From a virus: a stretch of DNA of 25,475 bases. Shown here piece by piece: positions 5,245 to 25,150 of the stretch; the first letter of the stretch is position 1, and every line of letters starts with the position of its first letter. The notes under the pieces were generated by a model. The model was not told where the DNA came from, did no database searches, and saw only the letters and a list, made by a program, of their open reading frames with translations. The stretch lies in UHGV virus genome UHGV-0146066. The stretch is one strand, 5' to 3'. The translations under genes and the position numbers were made by a program.

Positions 5245-5257
5245 TTTGATTACTCCA

Positions 5258-5286: not shown

Positions 5287-5292
5287 TTATAA

Positions 5293-5412
5293 TTAATCTT
5301 TAGCCTTGCGGCTTCGTTTAGCTGTGGCTTTCGCCGTAACTTCTTCTACTTCTGGAATCACCACCGCTTCATGTTCCGGCTGTGGTTCCGGTTCGGGAAG
5401 TTCTTCGTTAGT
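5293..5412 (-). other. In-frame 39-codon extension ORF after the UGA stop of the tail tube gene (candidate readthrough product)
   Basis: Codons directly after TGA (5413-5415) read TNEELPEPEPQPEHEAVVIPEVEEVTAKATAKRSRKAKD, then TAA at 5293-5295. Homologous to the extension after the capsid gene at 11130-11255. Confidence 0.55.
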
Positions 5413-5886
5413 TCATCCGGCAGTGAAGATTTGCTGTTTCAGCGGAGCACCATCCACCGCGAAGGTAAACTCTTTGGTTACAACTTCTTCATCGCCACCG
5501 TTCATAGCAACTTTAGAAATGAAGCCGTTGAAAGCGGTGCGAATACCAGTCTGTTTTGCTGCGTCAACGTAATATTCTACTTTAATCTGAATACGAGTAC
5601 CGTCTTCGGCAGCTTTGATCAGTTTTTCATGTACCGCATCGCCTGGGATGTAGTTAACGGTCAGAGTCAGATCAGGAACGTTCAGCTTCCCTACCAGTTT
5701 ACGGTTATACTGAGAAGAGAAGGATTTAACTTCTACAGTACCGCGCTCGATACCAGTTTCAGGAAAACCAGCACACTCTTTAATTTCTTCGTAGCTTTCG
5801 TGGTCGAGAGCGGTATTAGTGGTGTCCGCGTGATAGAACAGACTTACCAGACCACCAGTAAAAATATCTTTGAATTGCTGAGACAT
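5413..5886 (-). CDS. Tail tube protein, lambda gpV-like N-domain fold, 157 aa
   Basis: AAGGGG Shine-Dalgarno. Motifs TLTVNYIPGD, KAAEDGTRIQIKVEY and AFNGFISKV align with remembered gpV motifs [23 protein letters not shown] and VFRGWVSSIG. Ends in UGA-A. Confidence 0.6.
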   Translation of the reverse strand: MSQQFKDIFTGGLVSLFYHADTTNTALDHESYEEIKECAGFPETGIERGTVEVKSFSSQYNRKLVGKLNVPDLTLTVNYIPGDAVHEKLIKAAEDGTRIQIKVEYYVDAAKQTGIRTAFNGFISKVAMNGGDEEVVTKEFTFAVDGAPLKQQIFTAG

Positions 5887-5911
5887 AGAATTACCCCTTA
5901 ATTAAAATTGT

Positions 5912-5930
5912 TATTACGGGGGAACTAGTC
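5912..5930 (-). other. GC stem-loop downstream of the tail fiber gene (possible weak terminator or stability element)
   Basis: GGGGGA-ACTAGT-TCCCCC perfect inverted repeat. No adjacent U-tract on the minus strand. Confidence 0.4.
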
Positions 5931-5942
5931 CCCCGACTTTTA

Positions 5943-8900: not shown

Positions 8901-9443
8901 GACAGTATTCGTTAAGTTAGTAACGTTGGTATTAGTCTGATCAACTCGTGCATTAATATCTGTCTTGTTCTTGTTAATTGTTGCGTTGATAGTATCGCGG
9001 GTTGAAGTAATAGTCTGATTCAGTTCAGTCTTAGCAGCCGCCAGAGCGTTAGCCGCTTCGGTTTTATTGTTACCTACTGTGGTAGTCAAAGCATCAATTC
9101 GTTTGTTGGCTGCGGTGTCGCCAGCAGTGATTGAAGCATTGAGAGCATCACGGGTAGAAGTGATAGTCTGATTCAGTTCAGCTTTAGCACTAGCCAGATT
9201 ATTAGCGGCTTCTTGTTTGTTGGAAGCAATAACACGGTCAGTGCTAGTTTTGTTATTGTCTACTTTCGTATTCAGTTCAGCGTGTTTTTCTGGAGAAACA
9301 CTAATTTGGACTACGTTATTATTTTTGTCTTTGGTGTAAATCACATGATCCGCCAACTGTAAGGCGATTTCACCCTGTGATAATTGTTCCGGCGTTGGTT
9401 TTTTACCCGCCGTCTGTGTGCGTTTAAATTGGATTGATTGCAT
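5943..9443 (-). CDS. Tail fiber protein with C-terminal intramolecular chaperone (peptidase S74-like) domain, 1166 aa
   Basis: N-terminal KRTQTAGKKPTPEQLSQGEIAL fiber motif, repetitive Thr/Asn-rich shaft, and a C-terminal RSDSRLKINKEEL...VGIIAQDLEEVLPEAV...ALIIKAMQE region typical of autoproteolytic fiber chaperone domains. AGGTGA Shine-Dalgarno. Confidence 0.8.
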   Translation of the reverse strand: MQSIQFKRTQTAGKKPTPEQLSQGEIALQLADHVIYTKDKNNNVVQISVSPEKHAELNTKVDNNKTSTDRVIASNKQEAANNLASAKAELNQTITSTRDALNASITAGDTAANKRIDALTTTVGNNKTEAANALAAAKTELNQTITSTRDTINATINKNKTDINARVDQTNTNVTNLTNTVSANKSAIETTVANNKRDADTKITNLTGTVNSNHTAINNKVDQNKSSTDAAIAAANQRIDSIEGSADAAYIKKNTNTYHHGYLLTKTANYFDDAGARNLDYFGAFRPNNAEGWGNLILNIPHSGGKAHGRGFEFHYGSSSSQVKTYGFDKDGNKRFSYRMYHEGDKPTPTELGVYSKAEVDQMFIKNVRMTVPSGDATRGYFKIATATIPQNGRMVMLRIFGGNGYNVNSYDQVDFVEIVIRSGNNNPKGVSIAAYRRNALNVHQVFAVNTSGDNYDIYVNYGRYTDNVIVEYGKTDGVTLTVHDVPELTLVKPSVGVTDARVITMFNTENKAGTLMFDNNSQATYDIVSLNNVPDNNKKYMRKFRSRAAETIWHETVQGDVYRLATGSTDQKEVLKIVGSDGLFVDRLHLQGNNAIRMWRPTGRSNYFEYMDQRDGANKRQGWFGFGSTDTNDFQWYSDEGKNFVKLEASGQVSLSTGATKIVYTNGQYVAANSDAFRMIYGNYGAFWRNDGQNVYLLSTAENDKFGGWNGYRPFIYNLGSGNVTLGGDGNEGALVLERASRAARFAGNTYIKGQYLTFDAGAGQSRDYFRLSHWGDSNNARDNVIQLEDSKGAHFTTERTLATGAIKTKFFGDLESAGLIRWGKGTATSSFNIRAWGADARKQVFECADESGWHWYTQRPGGPGTTAIEFAINGTVKPQAIHTGGNITLNGADIEFKRTGNKHLWFRDPNGLELGLMYSDDAGVIRFRGQKQAQTWKLADKMIQLESGTVTGGGNGLIRGEVAGGSWASWRDRAAGLMVGCPHSTNSAHNVWKATHWGKYHIAAMGVHVPDGTIGNALVRLHVHDTNFDFNAAGDFTAGRNGSFNDVYIRSDSRLKINKEELQDGALEKVNSLKVYTYDKVKSLKDRSVIKREVGIIAQDLEEVLPEAVGIQSTEDPENPEAIKTISNSAVNALIIKAMQEMDAKYKAQIEALQKEIAELKATK

Positions 9444-9459
9444 CTAGAATCACCTCACT

Positions 9460-9492
9460 ATAAAACAGGAATAAGGGAGGCGTTAACCTCCC
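9460..9492 (-). terminator. Intrinsic terminator after the 277-aa gene
   Basis: Hairpin GGGAGG-CGTTAA-CCTCCC at 9475-9492, followed on the minus strand by the U-rich run UUAUUCCUGUUUUAU. Confidence 0.5.
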
Positions 9493-9524
9493 AACGTTCA
9501 TGTTTTATTTAGGTAGGAGAATCC

Positions 9525-10358
9525 TTAGTATTCGCCGAAATCGATCCGGTCAGTCTTAGCCACTGCGCCAATTTCGCTAGGTGTCGGTTTCTCATTGGTG
9601 GAATATACCTTGATCCATTCAGAACGACCGTTTTCCTGAATATTTCGGACACGTAAACGCGGTGCGCCAGAAGTATTACAGGTTAATTGCCATGCGCCAT
9701 GCTCATTAGCTTGAAGGTGAATTAATGCTGTGTCGGTTGAATATGGATTACCGCTAGCAGTTCCCTTGTAAGTTACGAAACGGTTTCCGGCTAATGCCTC
9801 GCTGTCAATCGGACCCGTGAATGGATTTACACCAGCACCCAAACCAAAATCACCCTGACGTAAGATCCGGCCTTCGGTAGCAATACCCCTTGCCAAAATC
9901 CCGCCATCTGGTTCAAGTTTAAATTCCAGTGTTACAGCTTTGTTATCACTACCACGGGTTTTATGTGATGTGACGTAAGCATCGAATATACAAAAGTACC
10001 CTGTGTTAGCAGCACTATAGCCAGAGTTCACAACATAGAACATACGGAAGCGTAAAGGTGTTTTATCCTCTACCGCTTTCATCAACATTGCTTGATGTTC
10101 ATCGTCAAGAACACGGTTTAATGTGAGTGTTGTCGGTTCCAGTCTACGATAACCAGCAAGTTTCCCCGTAGCGTCCTGATCGTACTCTTCCAGAGTTTCT
10201 ATCTCTGTGGATTCGGTTAGCGTAGGGAATGCTGCGATGTTCTCCATAGAACTAAAGCTAGGATCGAAAAAGTCGACCTGATTGTCTATCTGGTTAGAGA
10301 TCGACACTTCAACATGTGATCCAGTGAAAATATCTAAGTTATCTTGTGTAATATTCAT
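9525..10358 (-). CDS. Putative major tail protein paralog (gpV-like N-domain) with fiber-like C-terminal motif, 277 aa
   Basis: EHQAMLMKAVEDKTPLRFRMFY resembles the gpV segment [21 protein letters not shown]. C-terminal NEKPTPSEIGAV resembles the KPTPxE motifs in the tail fiber. Lies after a gpU-like gene. Confidence 0.45.
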   Translation of the reverse strand: MNITQDNLDIFTGSHVEVSISNQIDNQVDFFDPSFSSMENIAAFPTLTESTEIETLEEYDQDATGKLAGYRRLEPTTLTLNRVLDDEHQAMLMKAVEDKTPLRFRMFYVVNSGYSAANTGYFCIFDAYVTSHKTRGSDNKAVTLEFKLEPDGGILARGIATEGRILRQGDFGLGAGVNPFTGPIDSEALAGNRFVTYKGTASGNPYSTDTALIHLQANEHGAWQLTCNTSGAPRLRVRNIQENGRSEWIKVYSTNEKPTPSEIGAVAKTDRIDFGEY

Positions 10359-10367
10359 TATTACCCC

Positions 10368-10790
10368 TTAAAAACGCGCTAGATAAGAAAATTTAAGGCT
10401 AAGTGTCCCAACGATACCCCCATCACTAGAATCATCGTCATAATCGGTATTAGAAGCTACTGGAGTGATATCTGAAATAGAGAAGCCCAAATCTTTAAAT
10501 CGTGGGTTATCCGGCTGAATCTGGATTATCTGGCAAATACCCTCATGGATTTTTGTTTCATGAATCTGAGAATATAATTGCATTTCGATAACGCATTCAG
10601 CTTGCATTGCATTACCACCACGAACACGCGTATAAGTTTCATTCATGCCAGTAATCCAACAAACCACGTCATCACTAAAGCCTTGCTGAGTTTGTTCTAC
10701 GTTTAAAGCCAGACCTAAATCTTGTTCGATAATATCTTGCAAGGCGCGTTTGATTTTCAGTCTCGGCATATTATTAACGGTAGCGAGCAT
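10368..10790 (-). CDS. Head-tail joining / tail terminator-like protein, 140 aa
   Basis: AGGGGG Shine-Dalgarno. Position between head genes and tail tube genes; size similar to gpU-class proteins. Overlaps the upstream ORF by 17 nt. Confidence 0.4.
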   Translation of the reverse strand: MLATVNNMPRLKIKRALQDIIEQDLGLALNVEQTQQGFSDDVVCWITGMNETYTRVRGGNAMQAECVIEMQLYSQIHETKIHEGICQIIQIQPDNPRFKDLGFSISDITPVASNTDYDDDSSDGGIVGTLSLKFSYLARF

Positions 10791-11064
10791 GTGTACCCCC
10801 TGCTAAAGTGATAAAGCAATCACAAGTATTGTCACCATTGCGCTTAACGTATTGAACTTTGAAACGCTGGTTTTCTACTGTGACAATATCACCTTGCTTT
10901 AAGTCTCCCTCACGACAGAATAGAAATTCGGTTTCTGTCATTACACCTGATTCGTCGGTAGTAGTAATTTCATGGTAAGCACGAATTGATTTACCACCTT
11001 CCACCGAAAATACAGGAGCACTTTTAAACATTCGATTTAATTGTGATTCTGATAATTTGAACAT
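10774..11064 (-). CDS. Head-tail connector / head completion protein, 96 aa
   Basis: AAGGGGG Shine-Dalgarno. First gene after the capsid gene terminator. Function inferred from position only. Confidence 0.4.
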   Translation of the reverse strand: MFKLSESQLNRMFKSAPVFSVEGGKSIRAYHEITTTDESGVMTETEFLFCREGDLKQGDIVTVENQRFKVQYVKRNGDNTCDCFITLAGGTHARYR

Positions 11065-11093
11065 AGTTACCCCCTTTATGGAGTATTTACATA

Positions 11094-11120
11094 CAAAAAA
11101 GCCCCACCGTTAGGCAGGGC
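11094..11120 (-). terminator. Intrinsic terminator after the capsid gene and its extension ORF
   Basis: Hairpin 11101-11120 followed by a U-tract on the minus strand (plus A-run 11094-11100). Homologous to the terminator at 5258-5286. Confidence 0.65.
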
Positions 11121-11126
11121 TAATTA

Positions 11127-11255
11127 TTATTCTTTAGTTTTACGTTGTTTTTTAACTGTGGCTTTCGCCGTAACCGTCTGAGATTCTTCTTCCTGAGATG
11201 GAATCAGATTTTCTTCCCCCAAATCGGGGGAAGGTTCAGATGGTTCTACGTTAGT
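11127..11255 (-). other. In-frame 42-codon extension ORF after the UGA stop of the capsid gene (candidate readthrough product)
   Basis: Codons directly after TGA (11256-11258) read TNVEPSEPSPDLGEENLIPSQEEESQTVTAKATVKKQRKTKE, then TAA at 11127-11129. Differs from the 5293-5412 extension by in-frame indels only. Confidence 0.55.
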
Positions 11256-13262
11256 TCATTCAGCGGAGATGTGAAGAACTTTCAGAGCTTCCGGCTGAAC
11301 TACGGTGAAGTCCAGGTCTACCCAGATACGCGGAACGATAGCAGACTGTGCGCGGTAAGTGGTGTCGTCCATATCCAGTTCCAGACCACCCCATTCACCG
11401 ATCATGATACCGGAGAAGTCACCCAGAACGATGTGGTCTGCCGGAATAACGCCAGAAGTAACTACATCGTAACCAGCCAGTTTGCCGTTTTCGATGATAT
11501 AACCGGAAACGCCGTTATCTTTCAGGGTAGATTCCAGTTCAGCAGCAGTTGCACCGCTCATTGCAAACTTGATGGACTGTGCCGGAACGCCAGCGTCGGT
11601 CAGTGCTGCAATTTCTTTCAGGAAGTCTTTGTAGCTAAAAGCGGCTTTCTTAGTAACGCGACCACCGTCTACCAGTTGCTTAACCAGACCTTTCGGACCG
11701 CGCTCGTTGTCTTTGTCAGACAGAATCAGTTGTTCCAGTTTGATCCGAACAGATTTGTTAATGTGATCAGTGATCAGGGTAGCAATATTCGGAACAGTTT
11801 TCAGAGACTGACGGCTGATCGGGTTGCCACCAGCAAAAGTTTTCGGAGCCATTTTCACGTTTTCAAAGCTAGCCTTCGATTCGGGGGCACTTCCATTTTC
11901 ATCAACAAAACCAAAGGCTTCGACGCTGGAAGCAGTCATTTTTGGTACTGCAATCGGGCTATTCAGACCAGACAGAACAGTCACACCCAGACGACCCAGA
12001 ACAGACTGTGGAAGCAGCATTTCTACATAGGATTCGGTCAGCAGTTTTTCGTCGGTTACAGCGGTCAGAGTAGCTTTGGTGTTACCTTCGGAAGCAGCAC
12101 GCAGAGCAGCAGCCGGAACGAATACAGAGCCACCGCGAGCAGCACGACCACGCTGCATTGCAGCACCAGCAGCCATAGCGGAATATTCAGCTTCGTTAGC
12201 GCCGAGCACGTCGCCATCTACCAGGGAGCGGATTACGTTATTAAGATCGAAAGTTTTTTCCATGATTTGTTCCTTATTAATTTGTTCGTTATTACGTTGA
12301 ACATTGGTAATGTTATTTAGTGCCTTAGTGCGGAATGCTTCCGGCGTCATATCTTTAACTGCCAATGCGCGTTCTAATTCTTCGTCGTTAATATTTAACT
12401 CACGAGCGATTGCTCGGATTTCTTCTTCGTCTTCTTCGGAACGTTCAGCCACTTCTTCGATTTTTTCTTCTTCAACCGGAGCGGCTTCACGTTCTTCTTT
12501 TACTTCTTCTGTTTCCCGAACAGTTGAACTATCATCATCAACACTTTCAGGATGTTTAGCGTCTTTTCCGTCTTCGAGATTTTCATCTTCTTTATTCTCT
12601 TCAACTTGGCGCTCTTGAGTTTCTTCTACTTCCGGTTCTTTATTTTCTTCTACCGGAGTTTCTTCAACCTGAGCGGGTTCTTGTTCTTCTTTGATTTCTT
12701 CGATTTGTTCTTTAGTCATATCGCGTTTAGCCTCCAAATTAACTGTGATAGTATTTAGAGAGCGATTCAGACCCACGGTGTCGTCTGCGGGAACAGACAC
12801 CCATGAAACCTCGTGAGGAATCCATTTAGTAACAATCAATTGTCCTTTGGTGTAGTCGATGTGATATTCTTTAATGTCATAACCGACAGAAATTTTTTCC
12901 ATCGTACCTTCAATGACTTTATTACGAATATCATTAGCCAAAGTGCCATGCTTAGAGAATTTAACCAGAGCACGACCTACGTTATCCGCATCGATTCGAG
13001 CGTTACAAACGACACCAATATGATTATCGAAATTATGATTGAACAGCAACGGAGCGTTATTATTCAGACGAGACAGATCAACCGCTTCCGGTGTATGTAC
13101 CAGAATTTCATCTAATACCACCATTTCTTGATTTTGCTCATCCCAGAATTGGCGCTGATAAGGCTGTTCACTGGAGAAAGCAATTTCAAATTCGTATTGA
13201 TCATTCTGCCCTTCGTTAATAACTCCACCGTAACCGTTAAGATCGCGGCGAAATTTAAGCAT
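11256..13262 (-). CDS. Prohead protease - scaffold-like acidic linker - HK97-fold major capsid protein in one 668-aa ORF
   Basis: N-terminal ~180 aa protease-like region, then a very acidic Glu-rich segment, then a C-terminal ~335 aa capsid-like region (GGSVFVPAAALRA...). Internal AAGGA-N7-ATG at 12263 could start a separate capsid product. Confidence 0.7.
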   Translation of the reverse strand: MLKFRRDLNGYGGVINEGQNDQYEFEIAFSSEQPYQRQFWDEQNQEMVVLDEILVHTPEAVDLSRLNNNAPLLFNHNFDNHIGVVCNARIDADNVGRALVKFSKHGTLANDIRNKVIEGTMEKISVGYDIKEYHIDYTKGQLIVTKWIPHEVSWVSVPADDTVGLNRSLNTITVNLEAKRDMTKEQIEEIKEEQEPAQVEETPVEENKEPEVEETQERQVEENKEDENLEDGKDAKHPESVDDDSSTVRETEEVKEEREAAPVEEEKIEEVAERSEEDEEEIRAIARELNINDEELERALAVKDMTPEAFRTKALNNITNVQRNNEQINKEQIMEKTFDLNNVIRSLVDGDVLGANEAEYSAMAAGAAMQRGRAARGGSVFVPAAALRAASEGNTKATLTAVTDEKLLTESYVEMLLPQSVLGRLGVTVLSGLNSPIAVPKMTASSVEAFGFVDENGSAPESKASFENVKMAPKTFAGGNPISRQSLKTVPNIATLITDHINKSVRIKLEQLILSDKDNERGPKGLVKQLVDGGRVTKKAAFSYKDFLKEIAALTDAGVPAQSIKFAMSGATAAELESTLKDNGVSGYIIENGKLAGYDVVTSGVIPADHIVLGDFSGIMIGEWGGLELDMDDTTYRAQSAIVPRIWVDLDFTVVQPEALKVLHISAE

Positions 13263-13283
13263 TTAATCACCTTTAATTAATTG

Positions 13284-13300
13284 GGGGCATTGCGCCCCCG
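13284..13300 (-). other. GC stem-loop between the portal and capsid genes
   Basis: GGGGGC-ATTGC-GCCCCC inverted repeat. No U-tract; on the minus strand it immediately precedes the AAGGTGA Shine-Dalgarno of the capsid ORF. Confidence 0.4.
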
Positions 13301-13307
13301 TTGGTTA

Positions 13308-14819
13308 TTAGGGATCGGTTTGAGAAGGGTTATCCTTGCTCTCACCATCAACGATAATATTTAGTGCGCTCTTTTCGGCTTGAATCTCTGAGAATACTTT
13401 TTCAGGATCATCACCACGTTCTAATATAACGGCAGTACGTGATTTAAGTCCGTTATCAATTAAAGCAATCTCGGCGCTTACGTCTTTAAATGGATCGACG
13501 GATTCAAAACGAGGACGAATAATAGTAGTGTTCTCGATAATATGCGGAATTGCAGTAATACGAATCGGAACAATACCACGCGCAGAATAATGGCGTAGAT
13601 ATGCTTCAAAAATTGGCAATACCACTGTTTCAATCAATTTGTTTTGCAGTGCTTTAACGCGCGTTCTTTGAAGTAATTCGCCGTAGCGTGCGGCGCTGTA
13701 ATTTATTTGGCTAGTATCGCCAGTTAAGCCCTGATTGAACACGCCAAGACCCATCGCTATACTCGTGAACATTCCATCATTGAAGCTGTTAAAGTCATCG
13801 CCGCTTTGCGTGGATTGAATACTCTTGATCGTTGCCCCTTCCGGTAATTCCTGAATAGTACCTGGCGCGAAATCGTGAATAACTTCCGGCGCTTGATATT
13901 GTTCATCATCTTCACCAGTATCAAAATCGTCACCAGAATCTTTCGGACGCTCGATGAACGCCATGCTACAACTTGAAATTCGTTTATGTACCAGTACAGC
14001 TTCGCGGAATGCGTCTTGATGTGCGATATCCTTAATCACTGGCAGGAAGTCAGTCACACCACGCAGAGATTCAGCCGCAAGTGGTTGATAATAATGACAT
14101 ACTTGCGAAGCATCTACGCGATAGTTATCACCTGTGTAAGTCTGAGTCAGTAGGTTGATTTTACGAAACCAAAATGCAACAGGGCGCATTGTTTCTACGT
14201 CATACTCGATCCCCTGATAGATAGCGCGTTCTTTGCTTACTTCACGGTTGAGCGTCCAGTCGCACTTATCAGCAGACAGGATAGAAACATTTAACTCATT
14301 GTTTTCTTTGGTTAAAACTATGAAGCACTCACCACCCATAACGCGCTCACGTTCAGCCATTACCAGCAATTCACGGAAGTTAAAGCGACCGTTACGAGAG
14401 AAGCGTTTAGCATTCTGCGCCCACTTCCAGAAAGCATTCTCGATCTGCTTATTCAGTGCGCTATCAAGTTTTCCATTTGATTTAACAACTGACGGCTTCG
14501 GATCTAGGCCAGTACCTACCACCATATCGGTGATGTATTGCGTGTAGCGACTGCCTACGGAGGTGTTTAAGGCCAGAGTACGACCCTGATCATAAAGGCG
14601 CTTACCATTCGATTTGAGAGCCTTATTGAAGGTTCCTGTGATAGTATCTTGTTGAAGCGATCCATCAATGCGATCACCAACCAGACCTAAACTTCGAGTA
14701 GCCAGAGATTTCTGGAATTTTTCTACTTGTTTGTCGATAAAGATTTTTTGTTGTTGCTGGCGGTGATTAGTTTTAACTGGAGTTTCTACCGCCTTTTTGC
14801 GTCGAAAAAGATTAAACAT
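13308..14819 (-). CDS. Portal protein, 503 aa
   Basis: Size and position between the terminase and protease/capsid genes. AGGGG Shine-Dalgarno. Acidic C-terminus. Confidence 0.7.
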   Translation of the reverse strand: MFNLFRRKKAVETPVKTNHRQQQQKIFIDKQVEKFQKSLATRSLGLVGDRIDGSLQQDTITGTFNKALKSNGKRLYDQGRTLALNTSVGSRYTQYITDMVVGTGLDPKPSVVKSNGKLDSALNKQIENAFWKWAQNAKRFSRNGRFNFRELLVMAERERVMGGECFIVLTKENNELNVSILSADKCDWTLNREVSKERAIYQGIEYDVETMRPVAFWFRKINLLTQTYTGDNYRVDASQVCHYYQPLAAESLRGVTDFLPVIKDIAHQDAFREAVLVHKRISSCSMAFIERPKDSGDDFDTGEDDEQYQAPEVIHDFAPGTIQELPEGATIKSIQSTQSGDDFNSFNDGMFTSIAMGLGVFNQGLTGDTSQINYSAARYGELLQRTRVKALQNKLIETVVLPIFEAYLRHYSARGIVPIRITAIPHIIENTTIIRPRFESVDPFKDVSAEIALIDNGLKSRTAVILERGDDPEKVFSEIQAEKSALNIIVDGESKDNPSQTDP

Positions 14820-14829
14820 GATTTACCCC

Positions 14830-15324
14830 TTATCGCGTAAGACGTAATTTGATATTTTTAATCGGACTAATTCCCTGTTTACGTCGTTCGGCTTGAATTA
14901 ATTTAGATAACTGACGTTCATAATCAGTCTTTAATTGCTGGAGAACAGCCAATGACTCATAGGCGAAAGTATTCCCTTTCACTGTCATTTGAGATAATGC
15001 GGCTTCGTCCCCAGATAAACGGGCGAAAATAACTTGCTCGATTAAGGCGATAGTTTCCCGCAGATATTCTTTTTTGGATTGTTTGGCGAATACTGGCAAA
15101 ACAGTTAATTCCTGCATTGATACCAGTTCTTCTTCCAAAGTTATTACGATGGTATATTTACCTTCGGCAAAATCTAAGGTTTTAATCTCATGATTAGCCG
15201 GAGAATCATCAACCTGATAGATAATATCTTTATTATTTCCTACCTGAATTGTTACACCCTCTTCATTCGCCAGCGTGACTTTTTCGCCTTTACGAATTAC
15301 TAAGGGAATTAGTTCTAAACTCAT
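14830..15324 (-). CDS. Hypothetical head protein, C-terminal half gpW-like (head-tail joining), 164 aa
   Basis: Lies between the large terminase and portal genes, the position of lambda W. C-terminal helical segment loosely resembles gpW. Confidence 0.35.
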   Translation of the reverse strand: MSLELIPLVIRKGEKVTLANEEGVTIQVGNNKDIIYQVDDSPANHEIKTLDFAEGKYTIVITLEEELVSMQELTVLPVFAKQSKKEYLRETIALIEQVIFARLSGDEAALSQMTVKGNTFAYESLAVLQQLKTDYERQLSKLIQAERRKQGISPIKNIKLRLTR

Positions 15325-15396
15325 AATTACCCCTTATTTAATTGTTATTGGATTAACAATATTTAGGAGTAAGCCGCCCCGAAGGACGGCGAGTTA

Positions 15397-17301
15397 TTAG
15401 AACGATGTTACCCAGCTACGGCCTCTATTTGGGCGTCTGGCGATGTTTTTACGTTGTGGTCGTGTGATTGGCTTATTTTCTTCGATTTGCTCGTCAGATT
15501 GCGATTTAGGAGCTTCTACGGGTTCTTCTGGTTCGCGGTTCAAACTATCTTTGATGGCTTCGAGTTTTTCCCATGACATTTTATTGAGTACATGGCGAGA
15601 AGCAGCATAGGAATAAGCCAGGCAGTCGAGAGCCTCGTTTCGTTGCTGACCAACTTTTACCCAACGTGTGGTATTACCCTGCCGTTTCAACTGTTCAGAT
15701 AACAATTGTTCGCAGTAGTCATCAGGAACGTCACCAATCTGGAAGACCGTATGAGGATCGCTGTCTCTCAAGTTCCGGTTAATCATTTCACGGATCATCG
15801 TCTTAAGGTTGTTTACGCCCAGAATTTTAAGAGTAAAACCACCCGTTCTTGTGTCCTTGACCGGAAGGATTGGAGCATCAACATTGCTTGCCCCTTTAAT
15901 GGCGCATAGGTTTTGCCACCTAGTGCAGAAGCGATAGATCACGTTTGTAGCTCGTCCGTTCGATGAGTCCACGAAAGCAGATAGCATCGGGATTCGTTGA
16001 CCTGATCGGGTATAGAATTTAGCTTTCAGGAAGTTGTAAAGCTGGTCATATGCTGGCGATTCGTGGCGTTCGCAGTTCACATCATAGAATGATCGGTGAT
16101 CAACTACGCATATCCCCTTACGAGAGATACCCAGCAAGGTAGATTCCAGACGGTCTTTTTGCTGGTCAACTCCACCTACCAGAGCCAGAACATCATCAGG
16201 AATATTATCTAAGCTAATGTCAGTTTTCAGCGTTTCCAGTTCGTCGGCTGTGCGGTCTTCGTTAAGATCATCGAAGGTTTCACCGAGCACCACATTATAG
16301 AACGTTGCCAGTGACATATTCGCGTAGCTATCAGCAAAGTCCACCACACACGCACGGATAGAACTAAACGGAGACATAAGGCGGTTAGCATGAAAACCGA
16401 TTACTTCCGCATTTGGTTCGGTGGCGACCCATTCTCCCTGAGCAACAGCACGGAGGCGATCTGGTTCTGACCAATCAGTTTCACATGACGGGCAACGGTA
16501 AACGGCTGTGTCTGGATTCGGCAGTGATTTACCATTGATTACATGCCAATCAAAGAATACTCTACTCCATTCCATTACGTGTTTGTGTCCGCAATGCTGG
16601 CAAACGACGTGGTATTTTCTTTTATCCGAGAGTTCCCATTGTTGGTTTATCGCCCCATCCCGCGAAGTTGGAGTAGAAGCAATTACGATCCTTGCATCAT
16701 CACCGAAAGTGGTTGCGCGTTGTTCCGCTAGCTGGATCGGGTTCCCTTCGTCTGACTCATCAGCCGCATCAACTTCATCCAGAATAATCAAAGGCAGTGT
16801 CTTACCGCGCAAGTGTGATGGACTGTTCAGCGACATGAAATACATGAATGATCCGTTACGAAGCTGAATAATCGATGAGTTGTTAACGGCATTGCGATCT
16901 GATTTGTCGGTGATCATCGCCTTTAATTCTGGGGTTGCCTCTAATACTGGCTTCACCTTACCCGCAATCCATGAGTTCAATTCTCGAACGTTCGCTTGCA
17001 AAACACCGATATTAGTAGGGTTACTGGCGATCCTGTGAAAGATAATACCGTTTAGCACAAGAGTTTTACCCAACTGTGCCGAGCACTTTAGCACAATTTT
17101 TCGCCTATCTTCGGTGATCGCGTCCATCATTCCACGTTGGAAGGGATGCAACTTAATTAGAGATCCGGCTTTAACACCATCGGTTGCAACTACATTAGCC
17201 TCTACCCATTCGCTAGGTTTCATCGTTTTAGGTGGGCGAATTGCCGCAGAGATATTTTTAAGAATCTTTTTTAATTTGGCCTTATTAGAAATCAGTTTCA
17301 T
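15397..17301 (-). CDS. Terminase large subunit, lambda gpA family, 634 aa
   Basis: N-terminus IRPPKTMKPSEWVEANVV resembles gpA RPEPQTAVEWADANYY. Also IKGASNVDAPILPV versus gpA IKGASVYGKPV, and RNEALDCLAYSYAA versus RNEALDCFVYALAA. GAGGGT Shine-Dalgarno. Confidence 0.85.
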   Translation of the reverse strand: MKLISNKAKLKKILKNISAAIRPPKTMKPSEWVEANVVATDGVKAGSLIKLHPFQRGMMDAITEDRRKIVLKCSAQLGKTLVLNGIIFHRIASNPTNIGVLQANVRELNSWIAGKVKPVLEATPELKAMITDKSDRNAVNNSSIIQLRNGSFMYFMSLNSPSHLRGKTLPLIILDEVDAADESDEGNPIQLAEQRATTFGDDARIVIASTPTSRDGAINQQWELSDKRKYHVVCQHCGHKHVMEWSRVFFDWHVINGKSLPNPDTAVYRCPSCETDWSEPDRLRAVAQGEWVATEPNAEVIGFHANRLMSPFSSIRACVVDFADSYANMSLATFYNVVLGETFDDLNEDRTADELETLKTDISLDNIPDDVLALVGGVDQQKDRLESTLLGISRKGICVVDHRSFYDVNCERHESPAYDQLYNFLKAKFYTRSGQRIPMLSAFVDSSNGRATNVIYRFCTRWQNLCAIKGASNVDAPILPVKDTRTGGFTLKILGVNNLKTMIREMINRNLRDSDPHTVFQIGDVPDDYCEQLLSEQLKRQGNTTRWVKVGQQRNEALDCLAYSYAASRHVLNKMSWEKLEAIKDSLNREPEEPVEAPKSQSDEQIEENKPITRPQRKNIARRPNRGRSWVTSF

Positions 17302-17388: not shown

Positions 17389-17994
17389 ATGCTAATTAAT
17401 CAGCAAGAAAGAGATGAATTAGAATTAGCCTTGTCTTGTTGTACCGATCATGAATATCGTTTGCCAGTTAAGCACCATCACAAGAAGACTGATTACACTA
17501 CATCCGGTTTTAGTCGCGAAGAAGCGAAGCAAATTTTAATCGAGTTGTATCGCGATCATGGGTATACAGATATCCATAACTTCTTTAAGAAGCACCGAAC
17601 ATCACAGACAGAGTTTCAGCGAGTCCGTGAATGGTTTGATTTTGATATCAAGCGTTATTATCGAGTGGATGACGGTCCAATCTATCGGTTGCAGTGGAAG
17701 CCGATCAGGGAAGTGCTTAAACAGAAGAGATTGAATCATGCCATTACACGCTATCGTAACGTGGCTTTCAAGAAAGGCTATGGTGATACAAGGGAATTGT
17801 TTGTAGAACTCGCTAACGTGCGATATAGCCATTATTACAGGAATCCTAAAGAGTTCTTCGAAGTGCTGCGCAAGGTTGATATAAGTCGGGGTACATACTA
17901 TTCACGGTTGAAGAAGTACGGGATTAAGGCAGAGTTTTTTATGTCAGTTGACGATGGAGAACTTTTTCCGATAAAATGTAAGTCCTCTAAATAA
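17389..17994 (+). CDS. Hypothetical DNA-binding protein with C-terminal HTH (ISRGTYYSRLKKYGI), 201 aa
   Basis: AGGGGGG Shine-Dalgarno. Divergent from the large terminase gene. The C-terminal motif resembles recombinase/Fis-type helix-turn-helix. Confidence 0.5.
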   Translation: MLINQQERDELELALSCCTDHEYRLPVKHHHKKTDYTTSGFSREEAKQILIELYRDHGYTDIHNFFKKHRTSQTEFQRVREWFDFDIKRYYRVDDGPIYRLQWKPIREVLKQKRLNHAITRYRNVAFKKGYGDTRELFVELANVRYSHYYRNPKEFFEVLRKVDISRGTYYSRLKKYGIKAEFFMSVDDGELFPIKCKSSK

Positions 17995-18028
17995 AGGTGA
18001 ACATTCACTTTAATTTGGAGAAATGACT

Positions 18029-18253
18029 ATGACTACTAAAGCTACTCGCGGTCGTCCTGCCCGTTTTAATCGTGAACAACTGGCAGAGATTGTAAAAGCG
18101 TACTATCAAGCACCGAAAGGTAAAGAGAACAAAGAACGGGTATTAAATGAGCATGGCTTATCTATAGCCCAGCTATACAAATCCCTACATAAAGTTGATT
18201 TGAAATTCTTTGTTCAGGTTGACGGTGAAATGGTAGAAGCAACAGGAAATTGA
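18029..18253 (+). CDS. Small HTH-like protein (TRGRPARFNREQLAEIVKAYY), 74 aa
   Basis: GGAG Shine-Dalgarno is 8 nt upstream of the second ATG at 18029; the track start at 18023 has too short a spacer. Paralog of the ORF at 21192-21371. Confidence 0.55.
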   Translation: MTTKATRGRPARFNREQLAEIVKAYYQAPKGKENKERVLNEHGLSIAQLYKSLHKVDLKFFVQVDGEMVEATGN

Positions 18254-19492: not shown

Positions 19493-19960
19493 TTACAGCA
19501 TATCTAAGCCTTCATCGTAACCGTAGAAGCCACCGTGAGAAGAAAAAGCGATTGGTGCGTAGTCATCATCATCTTCGTCTTCTTCATCGCGTTCTGGTGC
19601 TTTCTGAGCGGTTTCTTTGCCGTAGTTAAACATTGCTTCATCCAGTTCTTGAAGAGTAAAGAAGCTACCCAGATCAACATCACCGGAACGGACTTCGAAA
19701 GGAAGGTATTCGCTAACGATGATCGCTGGAATATTCTGGTACTTTAAGCGGCCTTCATCGGTGAAGACGTTAACAACAATGGTCGGCTTCTTATTACGGC
19801 AAAACGCATACCATGCACTAGAGAAATGAGATTCATCAGAGTTGAAAAGAATGTTGTAACCACGTTCAACAAAGATCTTCATTAACTTGTCATTGTGGAA
19901 GCTATCAGCATCAAAACCTAACAGGATGAAAGGAGTAGTGGTAGTCATTTTATGGTTCAT
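19493..19960 (-). CDS. Hypothetical early protein with acidic C-terminus (EEDEDDDDY), 155 aa
   Basis: AGAGGA Shine-Dalgarno 8 nt upstream of ATG at 19960. No recognisable domain. Confidence 0.5.
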   Translation of the reverse strand: MNHKMTTTTPFILLGFDADSFHNDKLMKIFVERGYNILFNSDESHFSSAWYAFCRNKKPTIVVNVFTDEGRLKYQNIPAIIVSEYLPFEVRSGDVDLGSFFTLQELDEAMFNYGKETAQKAPERDEEDEDDDDYAPIAFSSHGGFYGYDEGLDML

Positions 19961-20503
19961 AGTGGAAATCCTCTAAAAGAAAGTGAATCAATCTAATATT
20001 ATTTATAAAGAGAAAATTCTTGTTATTATGAAAAGAGTGATCTGGTAGAGTCCAAAACTGGTCTGTACTTGAAAGATGATTGGATTCAGTCGGGCTAAAG
20101 CCCCCCTTCATAGATTTGATTAAATCATCATCAAAACGAAGAAGTATCTTTAGAATATAAGAATCTTTCTTTTGAAGAAATAATAATCAGGAAGCAATTT
20201 AGCAACCGAAGGTTGCAATCCCGAAGGGATACCAATACCTTTCTAGAAATTGATTGTTACTCACTTCGTTCGTTTACTAGAATCAGTTAGTAACTAGTAT
20301 TAAATCCCTTTCGAATCCTGCTTGCAGGTCTTAGAAGGTGTTGGTGGGCGCTACGCGCACGGCTACGCCGTATTCTTTTTGCGAGATCTTTCTTGAACGT
20401 AGTGAGAGAAAGCGAGCAAAAAGGAGAACGTTAGTTCGAATTTTATATTCTATGGTCTGTGGGGTATAATACCTTTCAAGGTCATACACTTACGTGATTG
20501 AAG

Positions 20504-20622
20504 TGTAGGGTTAGTGTAGGTGTGTAGGTTTCATAGTGTAGGTTTGAGGGTGTTATAGTGTAGGTTTACTGGCTAGTGTAGTGTAGGCCAATCCCTTTAA
20601 AGGGTAGGTGTGTAGTGTAGGT
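20504..20622 (+). repeat. Array of at least 7 direct GTGTAGG(TTT) repeats (iteron-like)
   Basis: GTGTAGG at 20504, 20515, 20523, 20537, 20559, 20582 and 20616, plus GTGTAGT variants, with irregular spacing. No ORF on either strand. Confidence 0.75.
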
Positions 20623-20818
20623 TTTCAATCAAAAATTTTGACAAAAAATTCTTGTATATTATTCAACCAAAAAACCACCAAAAATAGATGTAAATTCATG
20701 ATTTAAAAGAAATTTTCAAAAGATCTCCGTGCCATATAAGGTTTAAAAGGTTGATAATCATTATTTGCCATTTTCAAACAAAAATTTTGATACACCTTTC
20801 TCGCTTAGATCATGAATG

Positions 20819-20847
20819 TTGACATGTGTCAAGAACTATTTTATACT
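20819..20847 (+). promoter_or_regulatory. Strong sigma70 consensus-like promoter (TTGACA, 17-bp spacer, TATACT)
   Basis: -35 at 20819-20824 and -10 at 20842-20847, in an AT-rich context. Predicted start near 20854. Confidence 0.65.
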
Positions 20848-20853
20848 TTTTAT

Positions 20854-21013
20854 CCTTGGTAGGGGTTGAAATTTTCCAAACAATCCCCATATAGATGATA
20901 AGCATGATTTTTCGTGTATAAATACAATGCATGAAAAATGATTGTTCACTTCTGAAAATCCCTTGACTAACTGTTAATTCATACAGCACTGGTTAGATAT
21001 GCAGTGCTTTTTC
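20854..21013 (+). ncRNA. Candidate ~160-nt small RNA or leader transcript between the strong promoter and the first terminator
   Basis: Bounded by the promoter at 20819-20847 and the terminator at 20986-21013. Only an 8-codon ORF without a Shine-Dalgarno lies inside. Confidence 0.3.
20986..21013 (+). terminator. Intrinsic terminator (7-bp stem AGCACUG/CAGUGCU, then U5)
   Basis: Stem 20986-20992 pairs with 21003-21009; T-run 21009-21013. Confidence 0.6.
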
Positions 21014-21136
21014 GGTCGAATATTGTACGAATTGATTAATTATCAATCTTCTCTTTAGCAATTCGTGCTCCCACTGATCGGATATACAGTTGTTTTACAG
21101 AGTTTTTGAAAATCATTTTTATAAATAGAATTGTTC

Positions 21137-21156
21137 AGAGCGAAAAGCTCTTTTTT
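21137..21156 (+). terminator. Short hairpin with GAAAA pentaloop and U6 (terminator/attenuator; boxB-like architecture)
   Basis: AGAGC-GAAAA-GCUCU followed by TTTTTT, 35 nt upstream of the ATG at 21192. No promoter lies between it and the operon. Confidence 0.5.
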
Positions 21157-21191
21157 AAGGAATTATTAATCCACATGTGAGGAATCGATTT

Positions 21192-21371
21192 ATGGCTAGA
21201 CCTGTTAAATTTACTCGTGAAATGATTGTTGATATTGCTAAACGGTTTTACAGCGACACTGAGCGAGGCGGGGAAAACTTCTTTAAGAAGGAAGGGATTG
21301 ATAGAAGCGGATTCTATAAGCTAATGAAGAAATACGAAATTCAGGTAAAGATTAACGTTCAAGTTTGTTAA
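21192..21371 (+). CDS. Small HTH-like protein (ARPVKFTREMIVDIAKRFY), 59 aa; paralog of 18029-18253
   Basis: GAGGAA Shine-Dalgarno upstream of ATG at 21192; the track GTG start at 21177 is less likely. Shares the RP-x-(K/R)F-x-RE...I/V...Y motif with the 18029 ORF. Confidence 0.55.
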   Translation: MARPVKFTREMIVDIAKRFYSDTERGGENFFKKEGIDRSGFYKLMKKYEIQVKINVQVC

Positions 21372-21487: not shown

Positions 21488-22501
21488 ATGAAAAATTCTA
21501 AGCGCATCACCTTCAACCTATTCATCAAATCCAACGGCAAACTGAACATTACCGTTATGGAAGGTAAAGCAAGCAAACAAGACAAATCCTTTGAAGTAGT
21601 ATCCGGTAAGACTCTGACCGAAATGCGTCAGAATGCTGGCATCAAAGACGGTGCTGAATGGCAGATCACTAACCGTTTCGACAAACGTCACGTTAAACCT
21701 ACACTGGTAGAAGGTGAATCCGTTTATTGCTTCGCTCGTGCTGTTAAAGCCGATGAAACTTACTATCTCGCTGTTATTAAAACTGCTTCCGGCTTCCGTG
21801 CTGTAATGCATCACAAGAGCAAGCGTAACGAATACGGCGTAGAGACCCAGGAAGTTGCAAAACGCTTCCGTACTGTTGCTACTGAATCCACTGTAAAGGA
21901 TGTTTCTGGTACTGTTAACACCGCTAAAGGCGGTTCCTTCTACAACCACGCATTACAGGTTACTTCCTCCTTCTTCTGCAAAAAAGAAGCACAGAAAGAA
22001 GTTGCTCCGGTAGTAGTTGAAGAAGTTAAAGAAGAAGTTGCAGTGGTTGAATCTTCCGAAGTTGAAGCACTGAAAGCACGCATTGCTGAACTGGAAGCTG
22101 AAAACGCATCTCTGAAAGCTGAACTGGCAGCGCAGGAAACCACTTTCGAAGTAGCAGCGGTTGAAGTTGAAGCAGTTGAAGAAAAATCCATTGATGAAGA
22201 ACTGGAAGAACTCCTTAACTATCGCTGGGGTAACGGTGAAAAAGTAGGACAGGAAGAACAGAAAGAAGCTGATCCGGTAGTAGTTCCGGTTGAAGAAAAA
22301 TCCGCACCTGTTACTAACTTTGAATCCCTGCGCAATAACTTTATGGCTAAATTCAAAACCACTTGGGAAGATACCGAAGAAGAACAAGAAGAGATTGAAG
22401 TAAACGAAGACGAGATCCGCGAAGCACAGATGGCACTGCATGACGCTATCTATGACACCAACTACAGCGCCTACGCCTACGCCTACGCCTACGCAGCTTA
22501 A
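21488..22501 (+). CDS. Abundant-looking acidic coiled-coil protein ending in SAYAYAYAYAA, 337 aa
   Basis: AGGAG Shine-Dalgarno 8 nt upstream. Codon choice looks biased toward common E. coli codons. Acidic, coiled-coil C-terminal half. No domain recognised. Confidence 0.65.
   Translation: MKNSKRITFNLFIKSNGKLNITVMEGKASKQDKSFEVVSGKTLTEMRQNAGIKDGAEWQITNRFDKRHVKPTLVEGESVYCFARAVKADETYYLAVIKTASGFRAVMHHKSKRNEYGVETQEVAKRFRTVATESTVKDVSGTVNTAKGGSFYNHALQVTSSFFCKKEAQKEVAPVVVEEVKEEVAVVESSEVEALKARIAELEAENASLKAELAAQETTFEVAAVEVEAVEEKSIDEELEELLNYRWGNGEKVGQEEQKEADPVVVPVEEKSAPVTNFESLRNNFMAKFKTTWEDTEEEQEEIEVNEDEIREAQMALHDAIYDTNYSAYAYAYAYAA
22469..22492 (+). repeat. Hexanucleotide microsatellite (GCCTAC)x4 encoding the C-terminal (AY)4
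   Basis: Four perfect tandem GCCTAC units immediately before GCAGCTTAA at the end of the 337-aa ORF. Confidence 0.9.
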
Positions 22502-22516
22502 TAGAGAGGTAATTCT

Positions 22517-22759
22517 ATGATTAATCAAAACAAAGAATTTCTTGGTAATCTGATGTTAGAAATTACCAAAATGAAAGAAAGAATGGTAGCGATGGAATCA
22601 GAGATTAAAACTCTTAAAGCTGATAATAAGGCGTTGAGAAAGTCCTTAAAACTGATTGATGAGACTAATGCGGTTATGATGGATCAGGTGTTTCCTGAGT
22701 GGCGAAATGAAACTAAACCTACACAACATAAGAAACCTACACTTCGAATTGTTGCATAA
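22517..22759 (+). CDS. Small coiled-coil protein, 80 aa
   Basis: AGAGAGG Shine-Dalgarno. Heptad-like pattern (KERMVAMESEIKTLKADNKALRKSLKLI). Last gene of the plus-strand operon. Confidence 0.5.
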   Translation: MINQNKEFLGNLMLEITKMKERMVAMESEIKTLKADNKALRKSLKLIDETNAVMMDQVFPEWRNETKPTQHKKPTLRIVA

Positions 22760-23469: not shown

Positions 23470-24024
23470 TTAAGACACATCAAATTCATCGTCTTCTTCT
23501 GGTTCTTGTTCCGGTTCATCCATTAATGCTAATTCTTCTTCCTCGTCTTCTCCCAAATCTGCATTTTCGAACAAGTCCCCTACTTCATTTAAACGACGTT
23601 CGATGATCTCCCTTAGCTTATTCTTCAATGTTTTCTGATCAGTGGCGGATTCTAAAATTTCTAGGGCATCGATCGTACAAATCTGCAAAATAGTCTGTTT
23701 CACTTTCCCGCAGTATTCCGCTAGTTCCTGTTCTACATAACCGACAGGAATCAGGAGATTCATTTTTTCCTGGTTCTCTCGTTCGGCTGCATCTGCCAAA
23801 GCACGTTCACGGCGTAATTTCTCTACGTCGATTTGTTCTTTGATAGAAGTTTGTTTAAGCGGGTTGATAATATTTTTCAAGACCCATTCTGTTCCTTCTT
23901 TGGCTGGCACGCGGCGGGTATTGGTGTTAAATGGCAATCCCCTTTCTAACCATCGCTTACCGCCACCATTCAATGTATAGCCATATAAACGGGAAATTTC
24001 TGTAAGGGTTAATTCTTCTTTCAT
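23470..24024 (-). CDS. Terminase small subunit, lambda Nu1-like, 184 aa
   Basis: N-terminal LTLTEISRLYGYTLNGGGKRWLERGLPF and EKLRRE resemble remembered Nu1 segments LADIFGASIRTIQNWQEQGMPV, GGGK and EKLRRE. Acidic C-terminus. Strong GGAGGA Shine-Dalgarno. Confidence 0.5.
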   Translation of the reverse strand: MKEELTLTEISRLYGYTLNGGGKRWLERGLPFNTNTRRVPAKEGTEWVLKNIINPLKQTSIKEQIDVEKLRRERALADAAERENQEKMNLLIPVGYVEQELAEYCGKVKQTILQICTIDALEILESATDQKTLKNKLREIIERRLNEVGDLFENADLGEDEEEELALMDEPEQEPEEDDEFDVS

Positions 24025-24382: not shown

Positions 24383-25150
24383 ATGAAAAACATTATCGCT
24401 GCTATCATGCTTTCTGCTACTGCTTTCGGTGCTGATGCTGCGTCCTTTGATTGCACTAAGGCTACTACCAAATCAGAGAAGTTTATTTGTGCTAATGAGT
24501 CAATCTCCGCACTGGATTCTAAACTTCATGAAGTATATGTTAAGGCTGTTAAGATTAATCCGTCTCTTAAACAAGAGCAACGTAACTGGAATAAAACTGT
24601 TCGTGACACAATGATCAATATCGGGCAGATTCAGCCACTGGAGGCTGTATACAACGCTCAAATCCAAAACTTGATGAATGTATTATCTAAAGAAGAAACC
24701 GCGTCAGGGAGCGTTTCAGAGACTTCTGCGAAGGTTGAAGAAGAACAACCGAAACAGGAAGAAAAAGTGGTGGAAGAACCGAAGGTTGAAGATAAACCAA
24801 AAGGATTTACCGGAGACATGACATTGCAATGCGATGTTCACTATAGCTGGGAAATCCAAGACGGGGTAGAAACAAAAGCAGTTAAAGACATTGGCTATCC
24901 TCGTTATAACTCTGGTGAACTTAAACTTAAAGTAAAAGACGGGGAAATTATTGAATTTGTGTATCGTGATAATTATGACGCGCATAAAGCAAAGACAAAA
25001 ACAGTGACGCATCAGAATGGCGCAATGCAATATGAAGGCCAAGTGGATAACAAAAAATATTATGTGTGGCGTGATAATCAAGATATGATTCGCTTAGAAG
25101 TACATAAAAAATATTCAAGAACATACATTGACCAGTACGGGTGCAAATAA
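24383..25150 (+). CDS. Secreted protein with N-terminal DUF1311 / LprI-like domain, 255 aa
   Basis: Sec-type signal peptide MKNIIAAIMLSATAFGADA. FDCTKATTKSEKFICANESISALDSKLHEVYVKAV fits the remembered DUF1311 pattern. AAGAGG Shine-Dalgarno. Confidence 0.55.
   Translation: MKNIIAAIMLSATAFGADAASFDCTKATTKSEKFICANESISALDSKLHEVYVKAVKINPSLKQEQRNWNKTVRDTMINIGQIQPLEAVYNAQIQNLMNVLSKEETASGSVSETSAKVEEEQPKQEEKVVEEPKVEDKPKGFTGDMTLQCDVHYSWEIQDGVETKAVKDIGYPRYNSGELKLKVKDGEIIEFVYRDNYDAHKAKTKTVTHQNGAMQYEGQVDNKKYYVWRDNQDMIRLEVHKKYSRTYIDQYGCK

Follow-up and report, generated by a model that had tools for sequence, protein, structure and literature searches.

Herein we analysed a repeat array in the virus genome UHGV-0146066, a 25,475-nt stretch of DNA (the window) that belongs to an Escherichia coli prophage. 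The prophage measures ~36–40 kb and encodes a serine integrase as well as a terminase of the lambda type. Comparison with related loci showed that this array of GTGTAGG repeats, located in a non-coding region between divergent gene blocks, and a nearby gene for a 337-aa protein constitute one allele of a swappable pair. Given that the two are exchanged together, the array very probably represents the set of double-stranded DNA recognition sites of the protein's basic N-terminal domain, its putative binding domain. A cognate protein with an array of repeated DNA sites is a known kind of system, and since the array-binding candidate, a previously undescribed phage protein, belonged to no known protein family, we regard the protein family as new. 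The pair is most likely either a replication origin or the main genetic switch, and is a lead to the origin or immunity determinant still missing for this prophage family, which is found in ~1% of complete E. coli genomes.

Repeat array and its covariation with one protein

The original prediction, made from the letters of the window, had placed at least seven direct copies of GTGTAGG at 20504–20622, in a 1.2-kb non-coding region between divergent blocks. The array lies one base away from these coordinates, at 20503–20621, while the rest of this description held. Seven exact copies are on the + strand (starting at 20503, 20514, 20522, 20536, 20558, 20581 and 20615), accompanied by two GTGTAGT near-copies (20575 and 20609) and one GGTAGG (20602); no open reading frame (ORF) of more than 32 aa crosses the array, and the non-coding region extends over 1231 bp (19961–21191) from the leftward 155-aa gene to the rightward 59-aa gene. 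A motif search through the window and its relatives, which had been proposed as a check, returned 11 matches on both strands of the window against 1.50 ± 1.36 expected (11 or more in none of 100 shuffles); at the position of the array, the comparison of relatives distinguished five motif types. The extended repeat unit is TAGTGTAGGTTT, i.e., (T)A-GTGTAGG-TTT; TAGTGTAGG sites start at 20512, 20534, 20556, 20579 and 20613 (spacings of 22, 22, 23 and 34 bp), and Tandem Repeats Finder reports a 22-bp period across 20512–20567. The spacing of the GTGTAGG copies had been called irregular and is uneven in detail (11, 8, 14, 22, 23 and 34 bp), yet the copies are phased near 11–11.5 bp (Rayleigh R = 0.76, P ~0.03 against random placement).

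We compared the window with 17 IMG/VR relatives, six exact-match contigs, two contigs with more distant homologues, three further complete genomes and a T4-like phage (loci are given L numbers). Across 23 loci and five motif types, the type of motif tracks the clade of the N-terminal domain (N-domain) of the 337-aa protein without exception. Type A, (TA)GTGTAGG, occurs in 6–8 copies in the window, L003, L004, L011, L012 and L151, with N-domains at least 77% identical to that of the window. In L150 the motif is TTAGTGCAGGG, with five exact copies of a core that differs by one base (GTGCAGG), and the N-domain is 45% identical. The N-domains of the remaining three types are barely alignable with that of the window: type B, TTTCAGGGGCAAAA, in 6–9 copies in 11 loci (L005–L010, L013, L014, L016, L017 and L159); type C, (A/G)CGGGGA, in 12–14 copies in L018, L157 and L158; and AGCGATTAC, in seven copies plus one inverted in L152, the T4-like phage. 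Because four other motifs replace GTGTAGG, always together with the N-domain of one protein, the general reading as a multi-site protein-binding array is strongly supported. The five motif/domain pairs furthermore provide natural recognition-code data, including the one-base pair GTGTAGG versus GTGCAGG at 45% protein identity.

The region is mosaic, with the array segment (~20316–20622) and the gene segment (21488–22757) being replaced jointly, whereas the 865 bp between them keep ~80% conservation even in several relatives whose array is of another type. No such covariation with array type was observed for TerL, the 201-, 76-, 155- and 59-aa proteins, Rha or the small-terminase-like (TerS-like) protein, whose alleles assort independently; L004 and L012, for example, combine a GTGTAGG array with a 59-aa protein that is just 55–56% identical. 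The helix-turn-helix (HTH) and Rha proteins of the phage, which had been suggested as binders, are not supported for this very reason, and the partner that emerged, the 337-aa protein, had not been mentioned. The 80-aa protein encoded next to it was considered as a partner and rejected because its gene is missing from type B loci. The same comparison bears on a further suggestion, namely that the array is a small-terminase recognition site (cosB or pac) for packaging. Lambda cosB and P1 pac are repeated short sites, and the array lies between a lambda-type gpA large terminase gene and a TerS-like gene that are oddly 6 kb apart. Yet the TerS-like protein does not follow the array type: L009, with a GGGGCAA (type B) array, has a 100% identical copy, and L018 (type C) has one of 95% identity. 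Nor does TerL follow it, the distances from the array are 3.2 kb to TerL and 2.85 kb to the TerS-like gene, and the T4-like carrier of the cassette uses a different packaging system. A packaging site is thus disfavoured and, in our view, most improbable.

A role as RNA had also been raised, in which + strand GUGUAGG/UAG repeats would be bound by the 337-aa protein in the manner of TRAP or HutP. All copies are on the coding strand of the operon, which is G-rich and C-poor at the array (GC skew +0.63), a promoter-like site is found just upstream, and the unit UAGUGUAG has UAG triplets 2 nt apart. On the other hand, the −10 element of that site is not conserved among type A relatives (TATAAT, TGAAAT, TCAAAT or TTAAAT), the L152 array is upstream of the operon promoter, inverted motif copies exist, the 11/22-bp spacing follows the DNA helix, the other motif types have no UAG, and the array RNA folds no better than its shuffles (z = −0.2). 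Duplex DNA is favoured over RNA as the target, and we regard the RNA alternative as very improbable.

Within type A, the repeats are invariant among relatives while the spacers have diverged; L004 has exactly one 22-bp unit less, and L012 has gained one copy via a point change. Three inverted GTGTAGG copies occur in the type-specific gene segment (against ~0.08 expected), conserved in E. coli type A and absent from L151. Tentatively, a degenerate inverted copy also precedes the array of the window (Table 1), and clearer ones go with arrays of other types, 55 bp upstream in L006, L007 and L008 and at 7629 in L152. We considered the array and the inverted pair at the 3′ end of the 80-aa gene as transposon-like ends, an idea that was rejected since neither L151 nor any locus of another type has the downstream copies. 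Sites of type A are also seen beyond type A. In type B (the reverse complement of the L006 non-coding region, 646–700, as well as L005, L010, L013, L016, L017 and L159), two to three perfect TAGTGTAGG sites are retained beside and inside the spacer of a TTGACA..TATACT promoter, with no type A protein encoded, and in type C loci three TGTAGGT copies precede the array. These sites are either recombination relics or a sign of cross-talk between types. A scan of a viral collection for three spaced GTGTAGG motifs gave at least 120 unrelated matches, mostly coding repeats, and was too unspecific to be of use. Scans of species-representative genomes found nothing.

The 337-aa protein and its operon

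The 337-aa protein consists of an N-domain (~1–170, isoelectric point (pI) 9.8), a coiled coil (~190–247), an acidic linker (net charge −31), which is probably disordered, and a tail ending in AYAYAYAA. All alleles share this build of a ~170-aa N-domain, a coiled coil, an acidic linker and a short tail that often ends in -AA, while the 204-aa version of L152 retains the N-domain and coiled coil only. The N-domain is basic in five of the six types (pI 9.1–9.8) and the remainder of the protein is acidic. The C-terminus (encoded at 22460–22498) has a variable (AY)n run, ..SAYAYAYAYAA here versus ..SAYAYAA in relatives, and close homologues measure 322–343 aa. Endings in -AA or -VA are seen in several alleles and in neighbouring ORFs, and are reminiscent of protease-recognition tails.

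No family or fold match for the protein was obtained in any library searched, and when tested it belonged to no known Rep, O, RepA or repressor family. The lone sub-threshold match concerned one of six members, the L152 homologue P0127, against NCBIfam RepM (E = 0.001; 18.5 bits, with a cut-off of 250). The AlphaFold model of the N-domain has a predicted local distance difference test (pLDDT) score of 67 overall and >80 for a core at 35–135, with the order beta-beta-beta-alpha-alpha-beta-beta-beta, and structure searches with models of the family matched nothing meaningful. We consider the protein an uncharacterised family, probably with a new DNA-binding fold. The family is also rare: an exhaustive search of 1.8 billion protein representatives recovered seven relatives, two large protein searches returned only near-identical E. 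coli copies among the best 120 matches listed and a third gave three proteins, and the family is absent from GenBank phages and PLSDB plasmids.

The gene is preceded in the operon by that of the 59-aa protein, the first of the cassette, which has no library match. This protein, with an N-terminal arm (ARPVKFTRE) followed by helices, is one of three paralogues sharing a (R)GRP/ARPxKF-TRE arm, the others being the 76-aa protein and the C-terminus of the 201-aa protein. Judged from their sequences, the three look like Hin/resolvase-type HTH proteins, again without a library match.

Candidate roles of the pair

Tentatively, we read the pair as an iteron-type replication origin with its initiator. 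Origins of this type with a covarying initiator include SaPI/PICI ori-Rep, Vibrio PLE ori-RepA, lambda-family ori-O, P1 oriR-RepA and R6K gamma-pi. The likeness lies in short direct repeats of the same orientation at helical spacing, an A+T-rich tract that adjoins the array in most E. coli types, a binding protein encoded alongside, a motif and binding domain that change jointly among close relatives, and occasional inverted copies near the promoter of the gene. In such a mechanism, the 7-bp cores, spaced at 11/22 bp along one face of the helix, would be occupied head to tail by N-domains, and a nucleoprotein complex would form as the coiled coils link the bound molecules. This complex would open or mark the adjoining tract of 20–30% GC for loading of the host replisome. 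Like plasmid Rep proteins, the protein would also be able to limit its own synthesis, through the single or inverted copies close to the operon promoter. Plasmid initiators both fire their origin and repress their own promoter, and origin and operator roles are not mutually exclusive.

Several observations are consistent with an origin. Spacing in the T4-like L152 array is 22, 11, 11, 21, 11 and 11 bp, and type B arrays peak at 10.5 bp for the stricter 8-mer AGGGGCAA (R = 0.85, a value without a significance test); for the 7-mer GGGGCAA, the test applied to the window gave R = 0.61, P = 0.09. The A+T-rich tract adjoins the array in the window, L009 and L018. The module is found in essentially every family member, which fits a core function with allelic specificity and not an optional cargo gene. 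No replication protein or CI-type repressor is recognisable anywhere in the prophage element; initiator candidates are otherwise lacking, while candidates for regulators are plentiful (the three HTH-like paralogues, Rha, and palindromes at the strong promoter). If the reading is true, the array and its protein would supply the otherwise missing origin-specific initiation function of the prophage. The RepM match of P0127 is a weak hint in the same direction.

Other observations weigh against it. Type C arrays are not phased, and the A+T-rich tract is absent beside the L150 and L152 arrays and lies ~80 bp beyond the array in L006, i.e., it is not universal. The RepM hint is far below its cut-off and confined to a single member, and the 337-aa protein has neither sequence nor fold similarity to any Rep, O or RepA protein, and its family was never found on a PLSDB plasmid. 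It contains no helicase domain or loader, and neither a helicase nor a helicase loader was found, nor a DnaA box (TTWTNCACA) anywhere in the window; GATC clusters near the array were likewise not found. The promoter facing the array is not conserved, and the C-terminal tail, which would be expected to contact the host machinery, varies between types. Unlike in iteron origins, the array is 0.87 kb upstream of the gene, with a promoter, two terminator-like hairpins and another gene in between. Why a lytic phage of the T4 type should need an origin of the host type is not obvious. Finally, the array is in the control region of divergent early operons, with cognate sites on the operon promoter in relatives, which would fit a transcription switch equally well.

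Such a switch could be a Mu-type multi-site operator, with the 337-aa protein as an immunity or early-transcription repressor that oligomerises on the array via its coiled coil. The divergent early promoters would be blocked or looped by it, or it would form a roadblock against transcripts running leftward into the operon of the 155-aa, 50-aa and Rha genes, and the motif types would represent heteroimmune groups. The Mu operator O1–O3 has many asymmetric sites over ~120–250 bp between divergent early promoters, together with an IHF site, and Mu repressor c has an N-terminal binding domain, a central coiled-coil/leucine-rich multimerisation region and a C-terminal tail that likely governs proteolysis. 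Here, too, we observed a multi-site array within a 1.2-kb divergent control region, IHF-like and LexA-box-like sites in the same region, and the three-part layout of binding domain, coiled coil and tail. The leftward operon includes an Ant/Rha-type gene, and a CI-type repressor is not recognisable elsewhere in the element. In relatives, cognate sites are found on or beside the operon promoter: in L150 a GTGCAGG copy abuts the −35 element, in L152 the inverted copy at 7629 does so, in L151 an inverted pair surrounds a TATAAAT that follows a second TTGACA, ~50 bp downstream of the strong promoter, and in L006-type loci a site copy is inside the promoter spacer. The extra inverted sites of the window, 2.1 kb off, could allow looping.

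Nevertheless, the window's own strong promoter has no overlapping cognate site, there are no sites in the divergent TerL/201-aa promoter region, and type B phages retain their two to three type A promoter sites without a type A protein. The protein shows no homology to Mu repressor c or any known repressor and no known DNA-binding fold, and it is much larger than the Mu protein and very acidic; its length of 337 aa and the net charge of −31 beyond its N-domain are unlike those of known repressors. Small HTH-like proteins and palindromic sites are already available for a switch, and the phage would remain without an origin or initiator. We consider an operator somewhat less likely than an origin.

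The T4-like phage adds a different perspective. L152 (ENA ERZ27275844), a T4-like phage of 169 kb, carries the whole cassette at 7188–8917, as an insertion separating its genes 3 and 2. The cassette comprises a hairpin-rich leader, the AGCGATTAC array, a promoter, and genes for a 64-aa protein (homologue of the 59-aa protein), a 204-aa protein (homologue of the array-binding candidate) and an 80-aa coiled-coil protein. This occurrence is of a single lineage, in three assemblies of one study. Together with the RB49-like segment in the leader of the window (see below), it suggests that lytic and temperate phages exchange modules for regulation or replication. T4 itself has a cluster of evenly spaced direct repeats at oriE, near genes 53 and 5, whose role is ill-defined (PMC3016281). 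The cassette of L152, between genes 3 and 2, is ~1.5–2 kb from genes 53 and 5. T4 RepEA and RepEB were ruled out as relatives, being 50- and 45-aa ORFs antisense to gene 5 and unrelated in size and position. To our knowledge, the T4 iterons have no covarying protein.

The occurrence of the cassette in this lytic phage is the main reason for giving some, albeit low, probability to its being portable cargo outside the replication or lysogeny machinery, with a self-marking or tethering element. The protein would then mark or position 'self' DNA, either by means of a cis-acting element that, as aba does for BstA, neutralises a protein excluding phages, or as a centromere-like anchor. A binding domain followed by a long coiled coil, a disordered acidic linker and a short C-terminal peptide is the build of a tether, and the leader of the window is partly similar to intergenic cassettes of RB49-like phages. 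In ParR/parC and BstA/aba, a cognate protein likewise acts with an allele-specific repeated cis element upstream of or within its own operon, and the strict 11-bp spacing upstream of the operon is reminiscent of parC. Taken further, this would describe an address-label cassette with a new DNA-binding fold and at least five programmable specificities that moves between temperate siphophages and lytic T4-like phages, an account we find improbable. Its role would be neither that of a classical origin nor of a repressor but, at a similarly small likelihood, to mark or tether the DNA of its carrier, for example as self-immunity to exclusion or as a roadblock biasing recombination toward the cassette. 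Unlike in those systems, there is no partition NTPase partner: the operon encodes the 59-, 337- and 80-aa proteins, none with an NTPase domain, and these and P0127 match no PADLOC defence model (we assume that the models cover BstA). The module is moreover present in essentially all family members and not variably so, the T4-like occurrence is confined to its one lineage, and an integrated prophage needs no partition system.

Control region and prophage around the array

The coordinates of the features of the window are collected in Table 1. The original prediction had described a cluster of strong promoters next to the array; our sigma-70 scan found one strong match, while the remainder were weak, with 13 matches in total against 7.6 ± 3.2 expected. 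To the right of the array, the A+T-rich tract holds the near-palindrome TCAAAAATTTTGA twice (within 20622–20652 and 20771–20801). The leader after the strong promoter is structured (20819–21157, fold z = −3.6) and could be a ~160-nt small RNA or an attenuated leader. CTGT-N8-ACAG is matched three times in the window against 0.24 expected, and the copy in the leader is kept in L009 and L151, with one mismatch in L018; through this LexA-like box, the region may be connected with the SOS response. Searches for Rfam families and tRNAs gave no match.

Table 1 Features of the window and their positions
Feature	Position	Strand	Remarks
Siphovirus structural module	469–17301	-
gpA-type large terminase gene	15397–17301	-
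201-aa protein	17389–17994
76-aa protein	18023–18253
155-aa protein	19493–19960	-	leftward operon
Segment similar to RB49-like cassettes	20107–20190
Hairpin GCAACC-GAA-GGTTGC	20202–20216
Hairpin ATCCC-GAA-GGGAT	20218–20230
Hairpin GCGC-TAC-GCGC	20348–20358
Hairpin ACGGC-TAC-GCCGT	20359–20371
Promoter-like site TTTATA-17-TATAAT	20442–20470	+	reads into the array
Degenerate inverted copy CATACAC (GTGTATG on the - strand, one mismatch)	20483–20489	-	13 bp before the first direct copy; tentative
GTGTAGG array	20503–20621	+
A+T-rich tract (20–30% GC)	20622–20818		adjoins the array on its right; conservation of ~80% among array types A, B (L007, L009) and C (L018)
IHF-consensus match	20744–20756	-	in the A+T-rich tract; single match, not significant window-wide
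Strong sigma-70-type promoter TTGACA-17-TATACT	20819–20847	+	rightward operon; 11/12; −35 inside palindrome TTGACATGTGTCAA
LexA-box-like CTGT-N8-ACAG, CTGTTAATTCATACAG	20971–20986		just before the first terminator-like hairpin, downstream of the strong promoter
Terminator-like hairpin with T run	20985–21013	+	in the leader
17-mer CTTTAGCAATTCGTGCT	21053–21069
Second terminator-like hairpin	21137–21157	+	ahead of the 59-aa gene
59-aa protein	21192–21371	+	first cassette gene
337-aa cognate protein (candidate binder)	21488–22501	+	covaries with array type in every locus
Inverted GTGTAGG within the 337-aa gene	21698–21704	-	kept in L003, L004, L011 and L012; absent from L151
80-aa coiled-coil protein	22517–22759	+	among E. 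coli loci L003–L018 only in type A; similar gene in the T4-like cassette
Two inverted GTGTAGG, 18 bp apart	22718–22742	-	at the 3′ end of the 80-aa gene; 15 bp short of where the type-specific segment ends on the right
TerS-like gene (phrog_57)	23470–24024
LprI-family (lysozyme-inhibitor-like) cargo gene	24383–25150		at the prophage end

Short G+C-rich hairpins with 3-nt loops are clustered at 20195–20440, with comparable clusters ahead of the arrays in L150, L151 and L152, and in phage DCP80 comparable hairpins take up the non-coding 1.3 kb that precede TerL (L001, 350–1220). Leaders of every array type have the 17-mer CTTTAGCAATTCGTGCT in nearly unchanged form, with two occurrences each in L150 and L006; it is a conserved element that is unlinked to array type. 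Megablast of the non-coding region against GenBank phages gave no match, and the sole match of a distant search was a 75–85-bp RB49-like segment. This segment (20107–20190) is 76–82% similar to unannotated intergenic cassettes of RB49-like (Krischvirus) phages, with one to three per genome (in RB49, for example, between ORF165c and ORF164c), and may represent one of the mobile cassettes with a promoter and stem-loop that these phages are known for.

The structural module is of the siphovirus type, with a gpA terminase and portal (both lambda-type), a protease-capsid fusion and tail genes that carry T-even-like fibre domains. To its right are the genes for the 201-aa and 76-aa proteins, Rha (Ant-like), a 50-aa protein and the 155-aa protein, followed by the non-coding region, and right of that region the 59-, 337-, 80- and 57-aa genes, the TerS-like gene and the LprI-family cargo gene. 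The distance between the TerS-like and gpA-type genes is an unusual split of packaging genes, which are separated by two divergent or convergent early units. The 155-aa protein, without a family match, has an acidic tail (..EEDEDDDDYAPIAF..) that we take to recall the C-terminal tails of single-strand-binding proteins.

Identical copies in E. coli chromosomes adjoin hicAB-yncJ-rlhA, whereas the insertion site of relatives is ycdX, beside a large serine recombinase. Among 5426 complete E. coli genomes, the non-coding region is present in 57, the 337-aa family in 58 and TerL in 53 (~1%), in no case on a plasmid; the closest isolated phage is DCP80, at 44% TerL identity. Two decayed copies, L146 (strain C325) and L147 (strain PigCaeca_2), have lost structural genes via IS3- and IS1-mediated deletions and retain an intact non-coding region and the 59-/337-/80-aa operon; their integration sites differ (hicB versus ycdX). 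At the end of the prophage, the LprI-family protein shares 61–71% identity with proteins of RB49-like E. coli phages, and is more distantly related to proteins of Aeromonas and Klebsiella phages.

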